32,407 bases of DNA, from positions 1 to 32,407 of IMG/VR virus record IMGVR_UViG_3300025519_000061. One strand, 5' to 3'. A model generated the notes under the pieces. It did no database searches and was not told the DNA's origin. It saw only the letters and a program-made list of their open reading frames with translations. Positions 4,392-23,898 of this stretch are shown in pieces. Both the position numbers and the translations under genes were made by a program. Numbering within the stretch: the first letter of the stretch is position 1; every line of letters starts with the position of its first letter. The stretch is from a virus (lineage: Duplodnaviria; Caudoviricetes).

Positions 4392-4419
4392 AAAAAAGAG
4401 CAACCACAAAAGGATGCTC
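4392..4419 (-). terminator. Intrinsic terminator upstream of the lysis cassette
   Basis: GAGCATCC-TTTTGT-GGTTGCTC followed by TTTTTT. Confidence 0.65.
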
Positions 4420-4470
4420 AGGAAAAATCCGTTTTTTAGTCCTTTGAAAAAGTCCATAAAATCACTCCGA

Positions 4471-4500
4471 AATTAAAGCACCCCGAAGGATGCTTTAATT
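4471..4500 (-). terminator. Terminator of the 67-aa moron
   Basis: AATTAAAGCATCC-TTCG-GGGTGCTTTAATT. Confidence 0.75.
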
Positions 4501-4502
4501 AA

Positions 4503-4706
4503 TTATTTTTCTTTTAAAATTATTGTTACTGAATACCCAGATGGAGTATCTTCAAAAATTTTTTCGTCAATTCTGTAATATCTTCCTTCCGAACCAACCA
4601 TAGAGCTGTTTACTAATGCATTTAATTCTAACTGGCTTAATTCTAATCGCTTGGTATCTAACTCATGATCATCAGGATAAATCAAATCTACTTTTATTTT
4701 GTCCAT
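4503..4706 (-). CDS. Small accessory (moron) protein, 67 aa
   Basis: GGGAGG RBS, own promoter and terminator. Confidence 0.75.
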   Translation of the reverse strand: MDKIKVDLIYPDDHELDTKRLELSQLELNALVNSSMVGSEGRYYRIDEKIFEDTPSGYSVTIILKEK

Positions 4707-4735
4707 GTGTAAAAACCTCCCTTTCTACCTACTAA

Positions 4736-4762
4736 ATTCGACAAAAAAGGAGGAAATCCTTT
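4736..4762 (-). promoter_or_regulatory. Sigma-H-type promoter
   Basis: AAAGGATTT-CCTCCTTTTTT-GTCGAAT (AGGA-17-GAAT). Confidence 0.7.
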
Positions 4763-4772
4763 TTCTTGTATA

Positions 4773-4803
4773 TAAAATAAGTGTCCATTTTATGTGGACA
4801 CTT
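4773..4803 (-). terminator. Hairpin/terminator after the tail-spike region
   Basis: Perfect 9-bp inverted repeat AAGTGTCCA/TGGACACTT followed by ATTTT. Confidence 0.65.
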
Positions 4804-4817
4804 CTTACTATTTTTCA

Positions 4818-6208
4818 CTAGATTACGTCAGTAATATTAAGCCCGTCAGGGATGTACGTGCCTCTAAATGCTTGCAATACAATTTCCATGTCATCTCCTG
4901 AATATACAGAATAGGTGTCCTTGCCACCACCATTACAATTTACTAACACTAGTTTACCTTTGGTTGTGGCACCGTCATTATCTGCTCTAAATGCAGATCT
5001 TTGAATCTGGTTATTGGCTAACCCGTCTTGCGCGGTACAATCATAGTATACAGATAAACAACCATTCGCGTCATTAACAACAGGACCTGTGCTTTCGAAG
5101 TACAAGCCATAAACTCTTAAAACACAAATACCGTCGTGTGCTGTGGAGCAATTAGCTGTCCTAGTAGTAGAAAATTTACCGTGTCGATAACTTGTACAGT
5201 TATATTCGACGACTAAACACTTTCTTCTATCTTCCGAAGAAACACTGCTGTAGTGATAATTAAACCCATCCTCTCCACCATACGCCGCAATACAACTAAA
5301 CAAAAATATATTCTTTACATTTTTGAAAGATATCGCATTTATTTCATTGTTTCTATTAATTCTTAAATCTCCGCCTGCAAAAACAGAATTATTCGCAATA
5401 AAAGTTCCTGACACCCCACCCGTAGTACTAGCTGTAATAACCATTGAATCTGTGCTTCTACCATGTAAAATAATACAATTTTCAACATATAGTTCGGCAT
5501 TATTTATTAATGTTGGTTCGAAATGTGCGCTTGATACATTAATGGCATAGTTTGCGTCATTTGGAGGCTGTTCGTCCCATGTGTGAATATAAACATAATC
5601 GTTATCAAAGTACCAAGTACCTTTTTCGCTATGGCATTCCGCAAGCGAAATTTTGTTTTCTAAAGGTATTGGTACGCCGTATTCATCTTTATGGCGCAAA
5701 TCAAATACCGAGTAAACCCCAACGTAAGCTGTTTTCCATGTGCCAGTTTCATCCTGTTCCCAATTTAGCCCGGGATAATGACTAGTGATATACACTTTTT
5801 CATCAGGGTTAGCAGGCATATAGCAATAGTTTTCCCGTTTATAGTGCGGTTTCTAACACCTCTTATTACGTGCGGACTAAGACACTTTATTACAAATTTA
5901 TTACCTGGTCGTGCCATTGCTTCATCCACTGCATAATACATATCTAGGTATGGTTTTTCTCTCGAACCGTCACCTGTGGAATTACTACCGTTATTTGAAA
6001 TAAAAATTTCTTCCCCGTCTCTATACTTCTCAAAGTTAAAATCATGATGAATCTTACCATCGTTTTTTCTGATAATATTAAAAGGCAAAGGAGCAAATCC
6101 ATCTGTCGTTTTTAACATGAAACCTAATGAACGTTTTAAATCTTCTAAGGTTGCTTTTTCTGCCAGTTGTGTTGTAACCGACTCATATTCTTGGTCTATT
6201 TCTTCCGT
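4818..6208 (-). pseudogene. Orphan tail-spike C-terminal module (right-handed beta-helix, depolymerase-like); no RBS or start at its 5' end; frameshift near 5820
   Basis: The frame opens at 6208 as TEEIDQEYESVTTQLAEK... and contains IFISNNGSNSTGDGSREKPY. One missing base at GCT AT^ATG CCT joins ORFs 5765-6118 and 4818-5819, which carries EDGFNYH and NCSTAHDG rungs. Confidence 0.7.
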
Positions 6209-6220
6209 TTACGCTATTAA

Positions 6221-7969
6221 TTAAAATTTAGTTCCAGGGTAGTCTTCCGTTATTGTTCCAGTCTCCACCTCTCTCCAATGTTCAAACGCTCTCACATCAT
6301 CAGTAGGTGTAAACTTAATTAATATCCTTTGTCCTCTCATTTGTAGTGTTCCTGATGTCGTTTTCCAATAAAATTTAATTTTTACAGGATTCGCAAACTG
6401 ATTAGTAGGAACAATTACCTTACCTGCATACATCAAATTTGCTTCGGTTCTTCTACCGCCGTCAACCATTACTTCAGTGTTGTATTGTTGGGTTGGCAAG
6501 TCAAGATGATTCGCACCACCTGTTCCACCACTAGTACTATAACGTTCATTACGATTTTGTTCGATTGAACAAGAAAAATAATTAATCGAATTAGGATCTT
6601 CATTAATGTGATTAAATATTGCATGAATTTCTATTAAGCCATGTACAGCAGGATAAAAAGTATACGTGTATTCACTTATTTCTTCCCAAGATGTTGACGT
6701 AGTGGACTTTGGAGGATGGACTCCGCCTGTTAATTTACCTGTCATTAATATTACTTTTGGTTCGCTTACTTTTTCGTATTTAATATTATTGCATAATGTA
6801 GCTTGTACAATCATATTCCCAAAAAATTCTACCATTCTTGTAATATCAGGTATAGATTCAACAGGATCAAACGCACCTCTTACCCATTCGGTCGAAGCAG
6901 TGATCATTCCAAAATTTTCGGCTGCATAGTTAAAATCAGTTGCTTCGGGTATAACGTCTATCATAGTATCGGGTTTTACTGGTGCTAAAGCATGCATTAT
7001 TTGAGCATAAAGATTCCCCATCGAATTATTGTGTATAGGTATTGCTGTATACATTTGATGCGAATCTTGTTTGGTGTCTGTATTGTGAAAATCCATGTAC
7101 AAATGAGCATCAGGATAACTTTCAAAAACTGTTTTCAACGCAATTGTTTCCGGTTCAGAGAAAGGTGCTGGACCACCATGCTCATTACCTGTCCAATTGT
7201 AATCAAAGTTTCGGTTAATATCTACACCGTTTGAGTTATATCTATCATGATTATTCAATGCCCACGGGTTTATAATTGGAACTACCACGATTCTTACGTT
7301 ATTACGCATGTATGCCATTTGTGGGTATTTGTCGTAGTCATAGCAGATGTGATGCATCACTCGCAAAAGTCCTCTAAATCCTAGTAGTTCTGACCCATGT
7401 ATTAAACTGCTCAAAATGATCGTTTTTTCGTATTTTTCAGGTTCAAAAACATATTTATAAATATCAAATTGACCTGAGGCATCTTTACTTAAAAATGTCT
7501 TTGTAATGTACTCAGGATAATCATTCATTAGAGCGTCATATTTTGCATAATAGGCACTAGTAGTTGCTCCGCCACCACCAGGAGCAATTTCACCTGCCGA
7601 TGGCTGGGTAGGTGCTTTCCATAGATCATGTGGACTGCCACTAAAAATGATAGTTTTTTCCAACTGCGCATCAACTTTATCCATTCGTTTTCCGATTGTT
7701 GTATATGATTGTCCGTCGTATCCGGACACTCTTGCGTCAACAACTTCGGCAGCACTCGGATTTTCGAGTGACATATTCGCAATCTGCTCATCGTATTTTT
7801 TCGCTAGGCTTGCTTGTTTTGTTTCAGTTGATTGACTCCTAGAGTTTGCTTCATCAGCTATATTTCCAGCTTCTTCAATTCCAGAAGCCAATGATTCCCG
7901 GACTTCTCGTCCGTATATTTTTGTGCGGATGTCATCAGCTAATTGTTTTATTTTCGTTGGTATTGCCAT
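6221..7969 (-). CDS. Tail spike/receptor-binding protein: N-terminal anchor, M14 zinc carboxypeptidase domain and beta-rich C-terminus
   Basis: N-terminal IRTKIYGREVRESLASGIE and EVVDAR tail motifs; HGSE, NSNGVDINRNFD, SEPET and DFH M14 motifs. Confidence 0.85.
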   Translation of the reverse strand: MAIPTKIKQLADDIRTKIYGREVRESLASGIEEAGNIADEANSRSQSTETKQASLAKKYDEQIANMSLENPSAAEVVDARVSGYDGQSYTTIGKRMDKVDAQLEKTIIFSGSPHDLWKAPTQPSAGEIAPGGGGATTSAYYAKYDALMNDYPEYITKTFLSKDASGQFDIYKYVFEPEKYEKTIILSSLIHGSELLGFRGLLRVMHHICYDYDKYPQMAYMRNNVRIVVVPIINPWALNNHDRYNSNGVDINRNFDYNWTGNEHGGPAPFSEPETIALKTVFESYPDAHLYMDFHNTDTKQDSHQMYTAIPIHNNSMGNLYAQIMHALAPVKPDTMIDVIPEATDFNYAAENFGMITASTEWVRGAFDPVESIPDITRMVEFFGNMIVQATLCNNIKYEKVSEPKVILMTGKLTGGVHPPKSTTSTSWEEISEYTYTFYPAVHGLIEIHAIFNHINEDPNSINYFSCSIEQNRNERYSTSGGTGGANHLDLPTQQYNTEVMVDGGRRTEANLMYAGKVIVPTNQFANPVKIKFYWKTTSGTLQMRGQRILIKFTPTDDVRAFEHWREVETGTITEDYPGTKF

Positions 7970-18312: not shown

Positions 18313-20040
18313 TCACCTCCCCACTAGTTGCATAAATTCTGAACGATTGTCAATGTAAACTCTATAACAGATTATAAGAGTTACGGCTCCATCAATTTTT
18401 TTGTCATCCTGGTCTTGTACTTTTACAGGTCGAATTTCCATTCTGCTATTAAGTTCTAATGCTGTATTTTCTAAGCAATACTTATCGATTGGATTGTTAT
18501 TATAATTAATTAGTTTGCTCCTCAAATCAGCTTCTACAAGTTTCATTGGGTCAGACATACTAGAAAATTCCTGACTTACTTTAACAGTATCAAATCCGAA
18601 GTCCTCCATTTCTTTTGACCAATAGACCGCTGACCATTTATCATACCCTGTCTTATAAACTCTGATTCCATAATCTCTATAAAGACTAACGAAAAATTTT
18701 GTTACAAGGCTAAAATCATTTTCATTACCTGGTGACACCACAACTAAATCATTTCTAATCCAATCCTCAAACCTTCTTTTCTCTTCTGTTGACATGTTTT
18801 CAATTTTTGATTCTGGTATAAAATATTTTTGATAGGTGTATTTTTTCTTGTCTCCTTTTCTCATCAAAAGAACTCTTGCGCTGGCAAGATCACCTGTTTT
18901 TGATAAATCAACTCCACCAATAGCAAAACAGCCTCTAAATTCTTCAAGGTCAAACACTTCTTCATTGATGATATCTTCATGGTTAAGCCAAGCCTGTGCG
19001 TTATTTTGCTTAATATTAAAGTCTTTAGATAAAACAAAAACACGCATGGCCTTGTCGGTTCTTGCTTCTTCAATCATTTTCCGCAAAAAACTCCATTTTT
19101 TTATAACACCTACACCCGGATTCGATTTCACCCAAGTCTTTTCATCTTGCCAAACTTCTTTTTCACTGTCCTGTGTATATAACCAAATTCTCCATCTTGG
19201 TCGCTCAAGTTCCCCATTTAGCACTTGCCTAGCTTCCTTCAATCTTCCGTCAAGATAACCATCATTAACGACTCCTTCTGTTGTTAATTCGATATATAGA
19301 GGATCATCTTGAGTAGATAAAGCTTGTCTTATCGGCATGATTGATGAATTATCTTTTAACTCATGCACCTCATCCACAGCACCAACTTTTATGTTTCGGC
19401 CTTCTTTTGCTCCGGTTTTTGCAGATATTTTTCGGATAGATCCTTTATTTTGGTAACTAAATTTCCCCCTCTTTTTAGGACGCTTGGGGTTACCAAAGAA
19501 AATACCTTTAATGTTTTTCCTGGTAACCTTAGCAAGGGTTTTACTTTCTTCTCTCATTGCGTCAATTGCCTGAAACATTAAATCAGCTTGCTCATAATCA
19601 TTGGAAGCACAAAGTATTTTTGTACCCATTTCTCCACAAAAAAACTCCGCTAAATTAATTGCAGAAATAAGAGGGGTCTTTCCATTTTTCCTGGCAACTA
19701 AAAAAAGGACGTCTTGAATTAATCTAACCCATCGATTAACTTCTTCGTCCCAAACTTTAAATATATATATTGATTCTATAAATGCCTTTTGAAAAAGCAT
19801 TAAAATAAATGGTTTCCCTGCAAACGGCGCTTCAAAATGTCTACACTCTCTTTCAATGAATTTGATTCTTTTATGAGCATCTTCAAAATCTATTTTTACA
19901 TCCGGATTATTAAACAGGGGAAGAATTCTATCAAACTCTTGCATTAATTCCTTGCCTACAAGAATCTCTCCTGATTTACATTTGCTTATATACTGCAAAA
20001 GATATGAGTGATTAAGATATGGATATAAATTTGAACTCAT
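18313..20040 (-). CDS. terL: Terminase large subunit
   Basis: VARKNGKT Walker A, VDEVHE Walker B, GGVDLS and KIDGAV nuclease motifs. Confidence 0.96.
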   Translation of the reverse strand: MSSNLYPYLNHSYLLQYISKCKSGEILVGKELMQEFDRILPLFNNPDVKIDFEDAHKRIKFIERECRHFEAPFAGKPFILMLFQKAFIESIYIFKVWDEEVNRWVRLIQDVLFLVARKNGKTPLISAINLAEFFCGEMGTKILCASNDYEQADLMFQAIDAMREESKTLAKVTRKNIKGIFFGNPKRPKKRGKFSYQNKGSIRKISAKTGAKEGRNIKVGAVDEVHELKDNSSIMPIRQALSTQDDPLYIELTTEGVVNDGYLDGRLKEARQVLNGELERPRWRIWLYTQDSEKEVWQDEKTWVKSNPGVGVIKKWSFLRKMIEEARTDKAMRVFVLSKDFNIKQNNAQAWLNHEDIINEEVFDLEEFRGCFAIGGVDLSKTGDLASARVLLMRKGDKKKYTYQKYFIPESKIENMSTEEKRRFEDWIRNDLVVVSPGNENDFSLVTKFFVSLYRDYGIRVYKTGYDKWSAVYWSKEMEDFGFDTVKVSQEFSSMSDPMKLVEADLRSKLINYNNNPIDKYCLENTALELNSRMEIRPVKVQDQDDKKIDGAVTLIICYRVYIDNRSEFMQLVGR

Positions 20041-20363
20041 TCATAATCACTCAAATCCTCGTCATCATCTAACATATTTTTATTTAAGATACCGTTTAAT
20101 GTTTTAATAATAACCGAATAACTATTGACGTTTTTTAAATATTGTTTAGCTGCTTCAACCGGTTTCTGCATAGCTGGATTGCTAGGATGAATCTTAACCA
20201 TCCCAATTTCAGCCAATGTTTTTCTTAGGAAAAAATTTTCCGATTTAAGAAAAGCTGCATCCTCAATTAATCCTTCAACTAACTTGCGTTTAGATTCATC
20301 AACAGAGGTGAAAATCTCTGTCAATTTCTGCAACTCTTGTTGATACACGGCCTTTTTAGACAT
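20037..20363 (-). CDS. Terminase small subunit (P27-like)
   Basis: ~108 aa overlapping the TerL start; LVEGLIEDAAFL and YSVIIKTL motifs; GGAGG RBS. Confidence 0.75.
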   Translation of the reverse strand: MSKKAVYQQELQKLTEIFTSVDESKRKLVEGLIEDAAFLKSENFFLRKTLAEIGMVKIHPSNPAMQKPVEAAKQYLKNVNSYSVIIKTLNGILNKNMLDDDEDLSDYE

Positions 20364-20394
20364 AGTTTTTTCAACCTCCAACGAATTTCAAAAT

Positions 20395-20468
20395 TTTCGG
20401 CGTGTGTGTAAGAAAGGTCCCCCCCTCGGTCCCCTCAGGCACTAGGAAAATTGATGACCGGGGGGATA
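20395..20468 (-). other. Candidate cos region
   Basis: GC-rich island TCCCCCCGG...GGGGACCGAGGGGGGGACC between HNH and terS, the usual cos position. Confidence 0.5.
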
Positions 20469-20708
20469 TAATTGCTGAATAGATTCATGGAAAAATTTAT
20501 TATGTTCTATAGTTTTAGTATTTAATCCGCCACTAGTCGTATCATGATGTTCAACATGTATAAACGTAGGATGAATCTTATCACCATTAGTAATCCAGTC
20601 AAAAGAAACTCTAATCATACCAGTAACTTCTTGACCTTTATACATAACTTTCGGTGTACTATTAATATCATCTAATACTAATTGAAACATAGGTTTGTCT
20701 TTCATCAT
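20442..20708 (-). CDS. Hypothetical phage protein
   Basis: 88-aa ORF with GAGGTG RBS. Confidence 0.7.
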   Translation of the reverse strand: MMKDKPMFQLVLDDINSTPKVMYKGQEVTGMIRVSFDWITNGDKIHPTFIHVEHHDTTSGGLNTKTIEHNKFFHESIQQLYPPGHQFS

Positions 20709-20714
20709 TTCACC

Positions 20715-21398
20715 TCATTTTGTAAAAGTCTCAAACCACTTCTCAATATACTTTGTCCACTCATCTTTCCTGTACTTTCTTTCCTCATCTACTTCTAATC
20801 TACTTAAACAGTCTTCCTTGCTTACATCCATAAAGATTAGTTCTGCTCCTAGATCATTGGCTAATCGTTCACGTTTATATTTATCTGCATATCCACCAAT
20901 TACCCAAGCATTATGCCACTTTCCAAACCTCGTCTTGATATTATCTATTAAATGATTATGAATACCAATTACATTAGAGAATAAGTTATCTGGTTTATCA
21001 TAGTAAGGTAGCATTGACACAGCAGAATATAATTGGTCCATATTGACGACTAGATCACCACGTTCCATGTTTTGACGGACAAATGTTGTTTTACCACTCA
21101 TTGGTGGTCCATATACTAAATAAACTTCTTTAGAGCCCTTATAGCCAAAACGTTTATGGGTTCTGTTATGACAATCAAAGCAAACTAATTCAATGTTAGA
21201 TGGGTTCAAACTAATAGTATGATCATGGACGTTTTCGGGAGTAAGCTCTATTTTATGGTGGCCAATAATATCTTTTGATTTTGCTATAACCTTACCACAA
21301 TGTTCACACTTATTTCCGCGTTCATTAATCAAGTTTAACCGCAATGTTATCCACTCATCAGAAGCGTAAAAAGATTTTAGTATGGAATATTTAGCCAT
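20715..21398 (-). CDS. HNH endonuclease fused to a P-loop NTPase domain
   Basis: CEHC...HHK...N...CFDCHN..H, then LVYGPPMSGKTT. Confidence 0.88.
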   Translation of the reverse strand: MAKYSILKSFYASDEWITLRLNLINERGNKCEHCGKVIAKSKDIIGHHKIELTPENVHDHTISLNPSNIELVCFDCHNRTHKRFGYKGSKEVYLVYGPPMSGKTTFVRQNMERGDLVVNMDQLYSAVSMLPYYDKPDNLFSNVIGIHNHLIDNIKTRFGKWHNAWVIGGYADKYKRERLANDLGAELIFMDVSKEDCLSRLEVDEERKYRKDEWTKYIEKWFETFTK

Positions 21399-21404
21399 AT
21401 CTAA

Positions 21405-22088
21405 TCACCACGCCTTTTGTTTTGCTGTATCGATATCCGCTTTAATTTTATTGATTCTCAACCGATGTTCCTCTTTCACTTCTTCAGGTGGTAAAGTTCT
21501 TAATAGTTCTTCATATTGTTTTATCTTTCGTGATATTGCTGCCATAGCTGCAGCTTGTGAGGTTAAGGCCTTTGCTTGTTTATCCCAAGCATGTTGAATT
21601 TCATATTCGATTTCCTCTGATGAACTTTTATCGTCCGAATAACTCTTTTGTTTCTTTATTACTTGTGTCATGTCTTCTTTGTCTTTAACATACATAATCT
21701 TTTGAGCACGAATAAAATTGGTAAACATGACAAGAATTTCTTCATAAACGATATCTAATGTACTCATACCCTCTCGAACTGCTTCGTATATTTCTTGTAA
21801 TTCTTCATCATTCGGTAACCACTTTTTAAAATACCCATGTTTAACAGCATTTTGATTTCCCAAAGGAGCACCACCTTTATTACCTACTGCATTTTTGTTA
21901 CGATATGGAGCCCCTCTTTTCGGATATGAATCTGGTATTTCTTCCCATTTGTCTACACATTTCCATTTTCTAACTTGACTAGCACTAATGCCTAGTTCTT
22001 CTGCAATCTCTTTAGGTTTCTTCTGTCGCCCACTCTGGAGCCATAATTTAAGGGCTTTTAATCGTTTTGGACTTATTTGTCTAGACAC
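21405..22088 (-). CDS. Second terminase-small-subunit-like protein (YqaS/XtmA type, N-terminal HTH)
   Basis: EIAEELGISASQVRKWK HTH and GAPYRNKNAVGNKGGAPLGNQNAVKHG motif. Confidence 0.8.
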   Translation of the reverse strand: MSRQISPKRLKALKLWLQSGRQKKPKEIAEELGISASQVRKWKCVDKWEEIPDSYPKRGAPYRNKNAVGNKGGAPLGNQNAVKHGYFKKWLPNDEELQEIYEAVREGMSTLDIVYEEILVMFTNFIRAQKIMYVKDKEDMTQVIKKQKSYSDDKSSSEEIEYEIQHAWDKQAKALTSQAAAMAAISRKIKQYEELLRTLPPEEVKEEHRLRINKIKADIDTAKQKAW

Positions 22089-22224
22089 ATCAAAAACCTC
22101 ACCTCCGGGCGAATTGAGTTGTTTTCACGTTTTGTTTTTTTCTTAATTTGGAGCGATAAGATTTCAAATGAAAAATGTTTGGGAAATAGAAAAAAATCAC
22201 CTAAAAAAACTACTCAAAAAAATG

Positions 22225-22250
22225 AAAAAAACACCTGAAAAATGGTGTTT
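22225..22250 (-). terminator. Terminator between the recombinase and packaging genes
   Basis: AAACACC-ATTTTTCA-GGTGTTT followed by TTTT. Confidence 0.55.
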
Positions 22251-22251
22251 G

Positions 22252-22281
22252 AGTGAATCATAATATATATTCTGTTGCACT
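22252..22281. other. dif-like tyrosine-recombinase core site A
   Basis: AGTGAATCATAA-TATATA-TTCTGTTGCACT: 12-bp imperfect inverted arms (9/12) with a 6-bp spacer. Confidence 0.7.
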
Positions 22282-22336
22282 GTTAAAATAAATTAAAATC
22301 TTGATATTTCAATATCCTTTCATGTTTTACTAATTG

Positions 22337-22367
22337 ACTGCAAATCATATATATTTTGTGTTGCACT
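22337..22367. other. Related core-type site B, directly repeated
   Basis: ACTGCAAATCAT-ATATATT-TTGTGTTGCACT; right arm 11/12 identical to site A. Confidence 0.6.
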
Positions 22368-22371
22368 AAAT

Positions 22372-22935
22372 CTAAAAAGAAAGTCGTTTTGTCTGTTCGT
22401 CCATCATCTCTTGCGTGACTCCGATGTACATTAAAGTGATGGTTTCATTGGAGTGATTGAACATTTTCATTAGTAACGCTAAGTTAGAAGGATTCTGCAT
22501 GTAAAGATGATATCCATATGTTTTTCTCATCGTATGAGTACCAATTTCTGTAAGACCAAAATGTTCTCCTGCTTCTTTTAACATGCGATAGGCTGTACTT
22601 CTATCTATTGGTTGACCTTTTATTTTGCTCTTAGTTTTTTTCTGTCTACTCTGAAATAAGTACTCATTATCATCTTTTCCAGCAATAAAGGTATTTAAAT
22701 CCTCTCTTATTGATGGATGTATGAGGAACTTTTTAGCTTTTCTCGTCTTACTCTCAATAATGTTTACATGTGTACCCTTGACCATACCAACACGTAAACT
22801 AAGTAAATCACTTACTCGAAGGCCACTATAAATCCCCATACAAAAAAACAAGTAGTTACGTAAACTCCTTGCTTTCAAGTATTCTTTGATTCCTTTAATA
22901 ACTTTTGGATCTCGAATCGGTTGTACAAAATTCAC
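22372..22935 (-). CDS. Small tyrosine recombinase (catalytic domain only)
   Basis: GLRVSD (R), SKT (K), HTMRK (HxxR), FNHS (H), YIG (Y); 187 aa. Confidence 0.92.
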   Translation of the reverse strand: MNFVQPIRDPKVIKGIKEYLKARSLRNYLFFCMGIYSGLRVSDLLSLRVGMVKGTHVNIIESKTRKAKKFLIHPSIREDLNTFIAGKDDNEYLFQSRQKKTKSKIKGQPIDRSTAYRMLKEAGEHFGLTEIGTHTMRKTYGYHLYMQNPSNLALLMKMFNHSNETITLMYIGVTQEMMDEQTKRLSF

Positions 22936-22941
22936 AGGTTT

Positions 22942-23139
22942 TCACCTTCTCCTCATAGCGCCTCTTACTCGTTTATAAATATCCATTCTCACTCCCATCA
23001 GGTCCTCTAAATCCCGACGGCTAATTTTTTCTGTAAATTTTTTCGTTTTACTATCATCAGATTGTATCATATTATCTTTCATTAGTTGCTTAAATTTCTT
23101 TTGTTGTGATTCTGATAAAAAATCAATCATCTTCATCAA
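22942..23139 (-). CDS. Small basic phage protein
   Basis: 65 aa, AGGGGG RBS, LMG...YKRVRGAMRRR C-terminus. Confidence 0.7.
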   Translation of the reverse strand: MMKMIDFLSESQQKKFKQLMKDNMIQSDDSKTKKFTEKISRRDLEDLMGVRMDIYKRVRGAMRRR

Positions 23140-23526: not shown

Positions 23527-23898
23527 CTAAATGATTCTAAGTGCTGTGGCGATTTGAAATATAGCTTGCTTTTTATACATGTAATATTGGTCCTTTGTAA
23601 TTCCCATATCTAAGTACAGTTCAATGTCTTTAATTCTTGTTGCACTAAGATACTTTTTTTCAATAATTTCTCGCTCAATTTCATCAAGTGCCTCATTGAT
23701 TGCCCGGTTAATTTGCTTAAACTTTATAATTTTTTCTTTTTCATTGTTGTTAAGCATTGGAAATAAAATTTCTAATCCTTCATCTTCAATTTCCTTTTTA
23801 TTTTCCATAGCAATTCGCAATGCTTTAAATTCCTTTAATTCCTTGATAACAATGTTTCTTACCTTTCTTTCATCTATTCCTTGTACTAATAGATCCAT
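23527..23898 (-). CDS. ArpU-family late transcriptional activator
   Basis: INRAINEALDEIEREIIEKKYL and YYMYKKQAIFQIATALRII motifs; position before the packaging module. Confidence 0.85.
   Translation of the reverse strand: MDLLVQGIDERKVRNIVIKELKEFKALRIAMENKKEIEDEGLEILFPMLNNNEKEKIIKFKQINRAINEALDEIEREIIEKKYLSATRIKDIELYLDMGITKDQYYMYKKQAIFQIATALRII

Follow-up and report, generated by a model that had tools for sequence, protein, structure and literature searches.

A catalytic-domain-only tyrosine recombinase and its adjacent three-part DNA unit in Gram-positive temperate phages: a probable multimer-resolution system with natural crossovers in relatives

A 187-aa tyrosine recombinase and the non-coding DNA unit directly downstream of its gene probably constitute a stand-alone multimer-resolution system, as deduced from sequence and comparative analyses. 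Both are encoded in the window, i.e., the whole stretch of 32,407 nucleotides analyzed, which represents a portion of a temperate siphophage with a Bacillota host. As judged from alignments, the catalytic residues are intact, the three-part unit is conserved, one copy of its crossover site (site A) is present per phage region, and natural crossovers have taken place within this site in B. cereus-type relatives. The system is real and widespread, and apparently active. These results support an earlier sequence-only reading in part, namely in that the phage has a recombination system of its own, equipped with conserved cognate sites, which most likely serves resolution. A literature search, with thin coverage of subscription papers, found no functional study of the recombinase family or its sites, and the gene is annotated without function in phi3626, SM1, phiCD6356, phIS3501 and the record named phi105. 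New here is the arm linkage in 182 B. cereus-type units, which places crossovers at positions 11-24 of site A. With the crossover site named, along with a probable accessory and a probable bend site, the function of this gene can be tested directly.

On the minus strand of the window, repressor and replication genes are followed by an ArpU-family late activator gene, a 65-aa ORF, the recombinase gene, the non-coding unit and a terS-like gene. An HNH gene, a PF03354-type terL and the head, tail and lysis genes come next; an integrase and a portion of the prophage are located beyond the 32-kb window. The features considered are as follows:

23527..23898, minus strand: ArpU-family late transcription activator (TIGR01637 above cut-off)
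22942..23139, minus strand: 65-aa ORF preceding the recombinase gene, no assigned function
22372..22935, minus strand: tyrosine recombinase of 187 aa, catalytic domain only (PHROG 216, PF00589)
22337..22367, minus strand: site B, imperfect 12-7-12 dyad, putative accessory non-crossover binding site
22294..22306, minus strand: IHF-consensus-like 13-mer, putative bend site for an HU-type host protein
22252..22281, minus strand: site A, 12-6-12 dyad with spacer at 22264-22269, crossover site as deduced from its conserved single copy and from crossovers in relatives
22229..22250, minus strand: terminator-like hairpin and T tail directly after site A (consensus scan)
21405..22088, minus strand: terminase-small-subunit-like gene, the first after site A; the slot in the window holds no cargo gene

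A domain search of the 65-aa ORF gave no core-binding-domain match, and relatives in which the activator gene abuts the recombinase gene have no space for this ORF. Late expression, previously proposed for the recombinase, does not hold as a family trait because the gene abuts that of the late activator in 32 of the 39 representatives with an activator nearby (60 of 74 candidate ORFs scanned); in the window, a gap of 591 bp separates the two genes.

Regarding the recombinase itself, the earlier description of a 187-aa protein that keeps R-K-H-R-H-Y and has no N-terminal domains was confirmed. PF00589 is its sole Pfam content (residues 13-175 of 187 aa), and the residues R40, K63, H134, R137, H161 and Y170, corresponding to the tyrosine-recombinase pattern R-K-H-R-H/W-Y, are invariant in all 130 aligned relatives as well as in 26 of 26 proteins including distant plasmid proteins. 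The predicted structure (pLDDT 94) is a single bare catalytic domain with the tyrosine-recombinase fold, matching XerA, XerH and Cre at a TM of about 0.7. Cleavage and strand exchange via a 3'-phosphotyrosine are predicted, with indirect support from the natural crossovers in relatives. Curated models of XerC, XerD, XerS and XerA scored the protein at 39-58 bits, against cut-offs of 220-335, which places it outside these families, and models of FimB/FimE-type invertases gave weak matches far under the cut-off. Simple tyrosine recombinases, as defined in the accessible part of PMC8138268, consist of a core-binding and a catalytic domain, and the phage enzyme with its catalytic domain alone falls outside that definition. 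The short form is the family norm: relatives among the 120 matches listed of 854 comprise 185-219 aa. A search for longer proteins, which provides weak evidence, found none with an N-terminal extension; one relative among 349 candidates carried a C-terminal extension. If a 187-aa recombinase does work with no core-binding domain, it would be of structural interest and would provide a compact tool.

The closest protein in the databases, at 96%, carries a name from Caldibacillus thermoamylovorans. Relatives were found in 216 of 50,697 phage records, including 128 Streptococcus phage records, and in 1,141 of 72,556 plasmid records, among them non-phage plasmids of 8-12 kb. Two related small recombinase genes in tandem, without a site A match, were observed at 4416-5513 of locus L143. 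Moreover, Streptococcus suis satellite records (L408, 9172-9714) end in a relative of the recombinase; they may represent truncated prophages.

Downstream of the gene, two arm-spacer-arm sites of about 30 bp had been described as core sites. The repetition of their arms at a distance of 86 bp was confirmed, yielding a unit of 116 bp in which the four arms score 29, versus a maximum of 19 in 12 shuffles. The assumed equal core status found no support. The arms of site A are symmetric at 9 of 12 positions around a palindromic spacer, whereas the 31 bp of site B read as 12-7-12 with 8/12 symmetry and reach only 3/12 if read as 12-6-12. Due to its 7-bp spacer and its linkage to upstream DNA in relatives, site B looks like an accessory site and not a second core.

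Between both sites lies the 13-mer at 22294-22306, an element missed in the sequence-only reading, which resembles the IHF consensus. Among 51 representatives, an IHF-like motif with at most one mismatch was found between the sites in 20, in 19 of them at exactly 25 bp before site A, compared to a mean of 2.7 and a maximum of 8 in shuffles; the window is the only one of the 51 with a perfect match to that consensus. Downstream of the sites, the A-tracts reported earlier are present. With spacings of 13, 13, 9 and 13 bp they are not helically phased, and three of the five tracts are part of the hairpin and tail at 22229-22250. The terminator consensus scan from which this hairpin derives found 2 matches versus 0.8 expected.

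A matrix with site A as its only seed, trained on a set of 56 representatives, separated 40 matches from shuffles (best 5.7 bits). The expectation that the sites are kept beside homologues was borne out: site A was found in 153 of 160 homologue loci, often displaced by insertions along with site B, and in 65 of 80 metagenome loci. A true second copy occurred in one of the 160 loci, in none of the 80 metagenome loci and in none of 120 pattern-found loci, 40 of the latter having short flanks. The window contains a single match at 35 bits, the next best scoring -2. Phages phi3626, SM1 and phiCD6356, all outside the training set, share the layout of A and B with the window at matrix scores of 1.9, 13.6 and 19.5 bits, respectively; since 1.9 bits is low, the assignment in phi3626 rests on symmetry (11/12). 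In 42 of 91 B. cereus-type loci (e.g., L020, L029 and L091), a second insertion slot was observed between the recombinase stop codon and site B. These insertions shift the entire unit by distances above 100 bp that reach about 4.6 kb, and one of them codes for an OLD/TOPRIM ATPase.

The proposed covariation of enzyme and site was observed as a correlation but does not show specificity co-evolution. Mantel rho versus the enzyme amounted to 0.23 for the left arm, 0.65 for the spacer, 0.62 for the right arm, 0.55 for the linker and 0.18 for the downstream flank (all p=0.002). This pattern follows shared ancestry and gives no evidence of specificity co-evolution.

The evidence on recombination at site A originates from relatives. 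Clustering of the 54 bp that follow site A in 91 loci encoding a B. cereus-type enzyme gave 44 unrelated clusters, versus 4 for the linker. Since a sharp edge alone could merely mark the end of selection, linkage was tested base by base in 182 units, obtained by dereplication at 97% from 189 with an indel-free linker out of 258. Sliding-boundary linkage amounted to 0.27-0.72 up to position 7 (left of position 13), to -0.07 to 0.03 at positions 13-31, and to 0.57 beyond. Within 23 groups sharing the same linker, positions -73, -64 and 10 were uniform in 22, 23 and 21 groups, respectively (6-7 expected; 6.2 for position 10), and position 29 in 5 (4.6 expected). Position 15 was uniform in 16 (12.7 expected, p=0.06; because pairs and groups share ancestry, linkage p-values are optimistic). 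In 29 groups sharing the same downstream DNA, position 29 was uniform in 21 (9.4 expected), position 15 in 25 (19.6 expected) and position 10 in 17 (11.9 expected); only three variable positions inside site A are common. Upstream DNA is therefore co-inherited with the left arm of site A and downstream DNA with the right arm, the spacer being tied in part to either side, and natural crossovers accordingly map to positions 11-24. Based on these alignments, site A qualifies as a natural crossover point in B. cereus-type relatives.

Individual pairs of units illustrate the same boundary. Ten pairs have near-identical downstream DNA but differ in their linkers; four of them show the last mismatch at position 10, four at or before position 0, one at 15 and one at 29. 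In 16 pairs that are near-identical upstream and differ downstream, the first mismatch never lies before position 25. Three pairs show 25-33 differences up to position 10, followed by 1-9 over 2,497 bp. Two prophages (G159 and G160) share 99.5-100% identity over 25 kb rightward of the site and match leftward only in patches of 77-95%, their early halves being different. Another pair (G156 and G157) shows 98% identity over 2.7 kb and then 92.5%.

In the window's own clade, nine of ten pairs from five related loci are 84-100% alike across the 50 bp preceding the site but only 50-72% alike downstream of it, and terminase families vary. The two closest relatives, long pieces from two of four runs compared with the window, are unbroken through site A and diverge inside terS instead, which counts against a crossover there. 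A DNA search of 151 genomes revealed no close new relative of the window. At 21767-22171, the terS-like gene is replaced in its 5' part, along with the DNA upstream of it, by unlike sequence of equal length in two close relatives, representing a DNA-binding-domain swap. Furthermore, an HNH-AAA fusion within 20037-22088 is flanked by two terS candidates, namely an HTH protein of 227 aa and a protein of 114 aa encoded ahead of terL.

The DNA following site A is variable in most loci. The gene terS directly follows site A in the window and accounts for 5 of 80 distinct first genes, while other loci have a variable slot that extends from site A to a conserved sequence, probably a late promoter, present in 120 of 129 units. 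Cargo begins within a few bases of the end of site A. PADLOC models (E<=1e-5) were matched by 12 of the 80 distinct first genes, several via shared domains only and without a background set for comparison, and Pfam domains of first genes include TIR, RelA/SpoT, HEPN, DUF3800 and AbiGi-like. Across the loci L020-L160, L174-L253 and L324-L390 the slot is hypervariable and mostly unannotated, with TIR, RelA/SpoT plus Panacea, HEPN, DUF3800, AbiGi-like and AAA proteins among its gene types. It represents a candidate pool of new anti-phage systems, and the present results draw attention to this slot of mostly uncharacterized, partly defence-like genes. In L080, a second site A lies 1,190 bp downstream of the first and has a linker-like sequence of its own ahead of it, and one reverse-oriented gene is situated between the copies; this tandem looks like an insertion through a crossover at site A.

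Phage mosaic boundaries are usually ascribed to homologous or illegitimate recombination, and the crossover point offers a base-level cause for one sharp boundary of this kind. Since genomes have been joined within site A in related Bacillus phages, the enzyme likely cuts and rejoins DNA there and would be the author of these crossovers. Recombinase copies on site B and the bent linker would restrict the reaction mainly to two units on one fused circle, site B and the IHF-like motif acting as a putative topological filter as in Sin res and the IRS of TnpI. The selected job would be the conversion of dimers of circular phage or plasmid DNA to monomers. If two different phages were fused by homologous recombination and then resolved at site A, hybrids would arise with the early half from one phage and the cargo and late half from the other. 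A single junction at site A is what resolution of a fused circle would leave, in agreement with the hybrids seen. Resolution of heterologous circles would make site A a constant exchange position next to a variable gene slot of partly defence-like content, and would so swap the replication and packaging halves between phages. The single copy per replicon and the presence on small non-phage plasmids fit multimer resolution. Linkage gives the position of the crossover and is equally compatible with resolution or direct fusion; as direct fusion would leave an identical trace, resolution is merely the proposed direction. Integrating phages have no obvious need for dimer resolution, and monomers would hinder cos packaging if the recombinase gene were expressed late. 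Moreover, rare spacer variants accompany many different downstream segments, which strict spacer matching would not predict. These points speak against resolution.

On plasmids, the family-specific two-site test was passed in only one of 14 loci, in which the unit is located upstream of the gene and inverted, and this low number is a further point against the proposed system; a generic unit test on plasmid loci gave false positives. Dyads upstream of the gene were recognized in about half of the plasmid loci by eye only (L164, L165, L167, L434, L435, L437, L439 and L441), and the inverted unit at 6764-6890 of L163 extends to the ribosome-binding site. Upstream dyads on plasmids suggest autorepression.

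Among known systems, TnpI of Tn4430 and its IRS offer a close parallel. According to the accessible part of PMC2847244, the IRS is a 116-bp site used by one tyrosine recombinase in a Bacillus host, with a core dyad cleaved at a 6-bp stagger and dispensable accessory recombinase-binding motifs that impose resolution even on symmetric cores; the latter matters here because the window's spacer is palindromic. A core dyad with accessory motifs is likewise apparent in the phage unit, in which A would be the crossover point and the related arms of B are linked to upstream DNA. Differences are that the accessory motifs of TnpI are direct repeats in a Tn3-family transposon, whereas those of the phage unit are arranged as an inverted dyad at a distance of 86 bp, an IHF-like motif lying in between, on a prophage or plasmid, and that the phage enzyme consists of the catalytic domain only.

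The site spacing of Sin res differs from that of the phage unit. Sin is also a serine recombinase, whereas the phage enzyme is of the tyrosine type. Sin res of Gram-positive plasmids combines two dimer-binding sites with HU bound between them, as described in the accessible text of PMC9943657; the phage unit would follow this layout if its IHF-like motif, enriched at a fixed offset between both sites, is a bender site of the HU/IHF type. XerS/difSL, XerH/difH, XerA/dif and CodV-RipX/dif share the Xer-type fold and inner core with the phage system, and xerS adjoins its site as the phage recombinase gene does (PMC5357621, accessible part). Unlike these chromosomal systems, the phage enzyme lacks the core-binding domain and scores far under the Xer model cut-offs, and its mobile unit has 12-bp arms, a second site and a linker motif. 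Cre plays a cyclization role in phage P1; it has an N-terminal domain, and loxP is a simple site without accessory parts. Most carriers of the phage recombinase have a terminase of the cos-phage family, and cos phages circularize without a recombinase. Common to Cre/loxP and the phage system are a phage-encoded single recombinase and one crossover site per genome. Cre/loxP is cited for dimer resolution in the accessible part of PMC8138268. Invertases of the FimB/FimE type are similar in length (about 200 aa), but the model matches are far below cut-off and an inverted pair of crossover sites bounding an invertible segment is missing in the window, which has one site A match over 32 kb and excludes part of the prophage.

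Recombination of site A between separate molecules as the selected job, either fusing sister circles to packageable multimers or exchanging halves and cargo between phages, is possible though less probable than resolution. The linkage break at site A is equally expected from such fusion, and one spacer is common to 30 of 51 divergent relatives, as cross-phage recombination would need; yet host dif spacers are conserved too, without cross-element exchange, and the spacer is highly variable within the window's own clade. The 68 different downstream clusters counted in a larger set of 169 units, the packaging genes adjoining the site and the L080 tandem with its own linker point in the same direction, as do the PADLOC matches, a count that lacks a control set. 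Frequent occurrence of the family on plasmids argues against fusion, and accessory sites usually impose resolution (accessible part of PMC2847244). A dedicated exchange point in Gram-positive temperate phages, at which the recombinase joins genomes, swaps early and late halves and trades defence genes in the adjoining slot, may be envisaged tentatively; if true, modular evolution of phages would have an enzyme as its engine, and the exchange would not be a by-product of dimer resolution. Integron-like capture of circular cassettes at site A is improbable: cargo does start a few bases past the site end, and L080 has a gene between two direct copies, but second copies of site A are virtually limited to that locus and cargo terminates at a conserved unrelated sequence instead of a site copy. 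Arrays of cassettes were not observed, L080 being the one tandem case. It is equally hard to believe that the protein merely binds or nicks the unit for regulation or packaging, with breakpoints arising from homology-driven recombination in the conserved 30 bp. Tolerated spacer mismatches would agree with this, as would a promoter-like match overlapping site A, although such matches are at chance level (8 found, 7.3 expected). However, the linker, which is homologous and longer, keeps its linkage, as does site B, while linkage vanishes within 19 bp inside site A, and the catalytic residues are invariant.

A partnership of the enzyme with host XerD/RipX is least probable, and so are recombination at chromosomal dif and a rearrangement of the tail junction. 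Site A shares 14 of 15 inner bases with three chromosomal dif-like sites (B. subtilis dif not among them), and the dif-like inner right arm is kept in the window's clade, whereas agreement in the outer arms is limited to 0-1 of 6 bases on the right and 0-2 of 7 on the left. The CodV/RipX site is an 11-6-11 arrangement, and some Streptococcus and Lactococcus species use XerS/difSL instead, according to the accessible part of PMC5357621; site A has neither this arrangement nor the conserved outer XerD/RipX arm. The proposed host partnership therefore finds no support, given furthermore that the window's spacer occurs in one of 51 relatives, that site A is self-symmetric, and that the enzyme family and the unit extend to streptococcal phages such as SM1. 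The 15-mer said to be shared with dif is indeed present, also in chromosomal dif-like sites (L432, L433), but 15 of its 17 matches are not dif-like; as the outer arms differ as well, specific dif mimicry was rejected. Across the family, the inner core matches dif at a mean of 10.9 of 15 positions, the window being at the top of the range, and the likeness is best described as a shared inner Xer-type core. A cos-specific role likewise found no confirmation: among 56 large downstream ORFs scanned, 37 were of the PF03354 type, 3 GpA, 4 Terminase_3/6N and 12 other or unclassified, and a tie to a single packaging type was discarded because GpA and Terminase_3/6N phages also carry the recombinase. 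The suggested link to tail-spike swapping was rejected as well, the junction at 6203-6215 matching the arm at 7 of 12 positions at best and scoring at background (<=-13 bits versus 35 for site A). As a separate observation, the products of the tail region at 4818-7969 include a protein of the zinc-carboxypeptidase (M14) type and another that resembles hydrolases, which likely represent wall- or capsule-degrading spikes.
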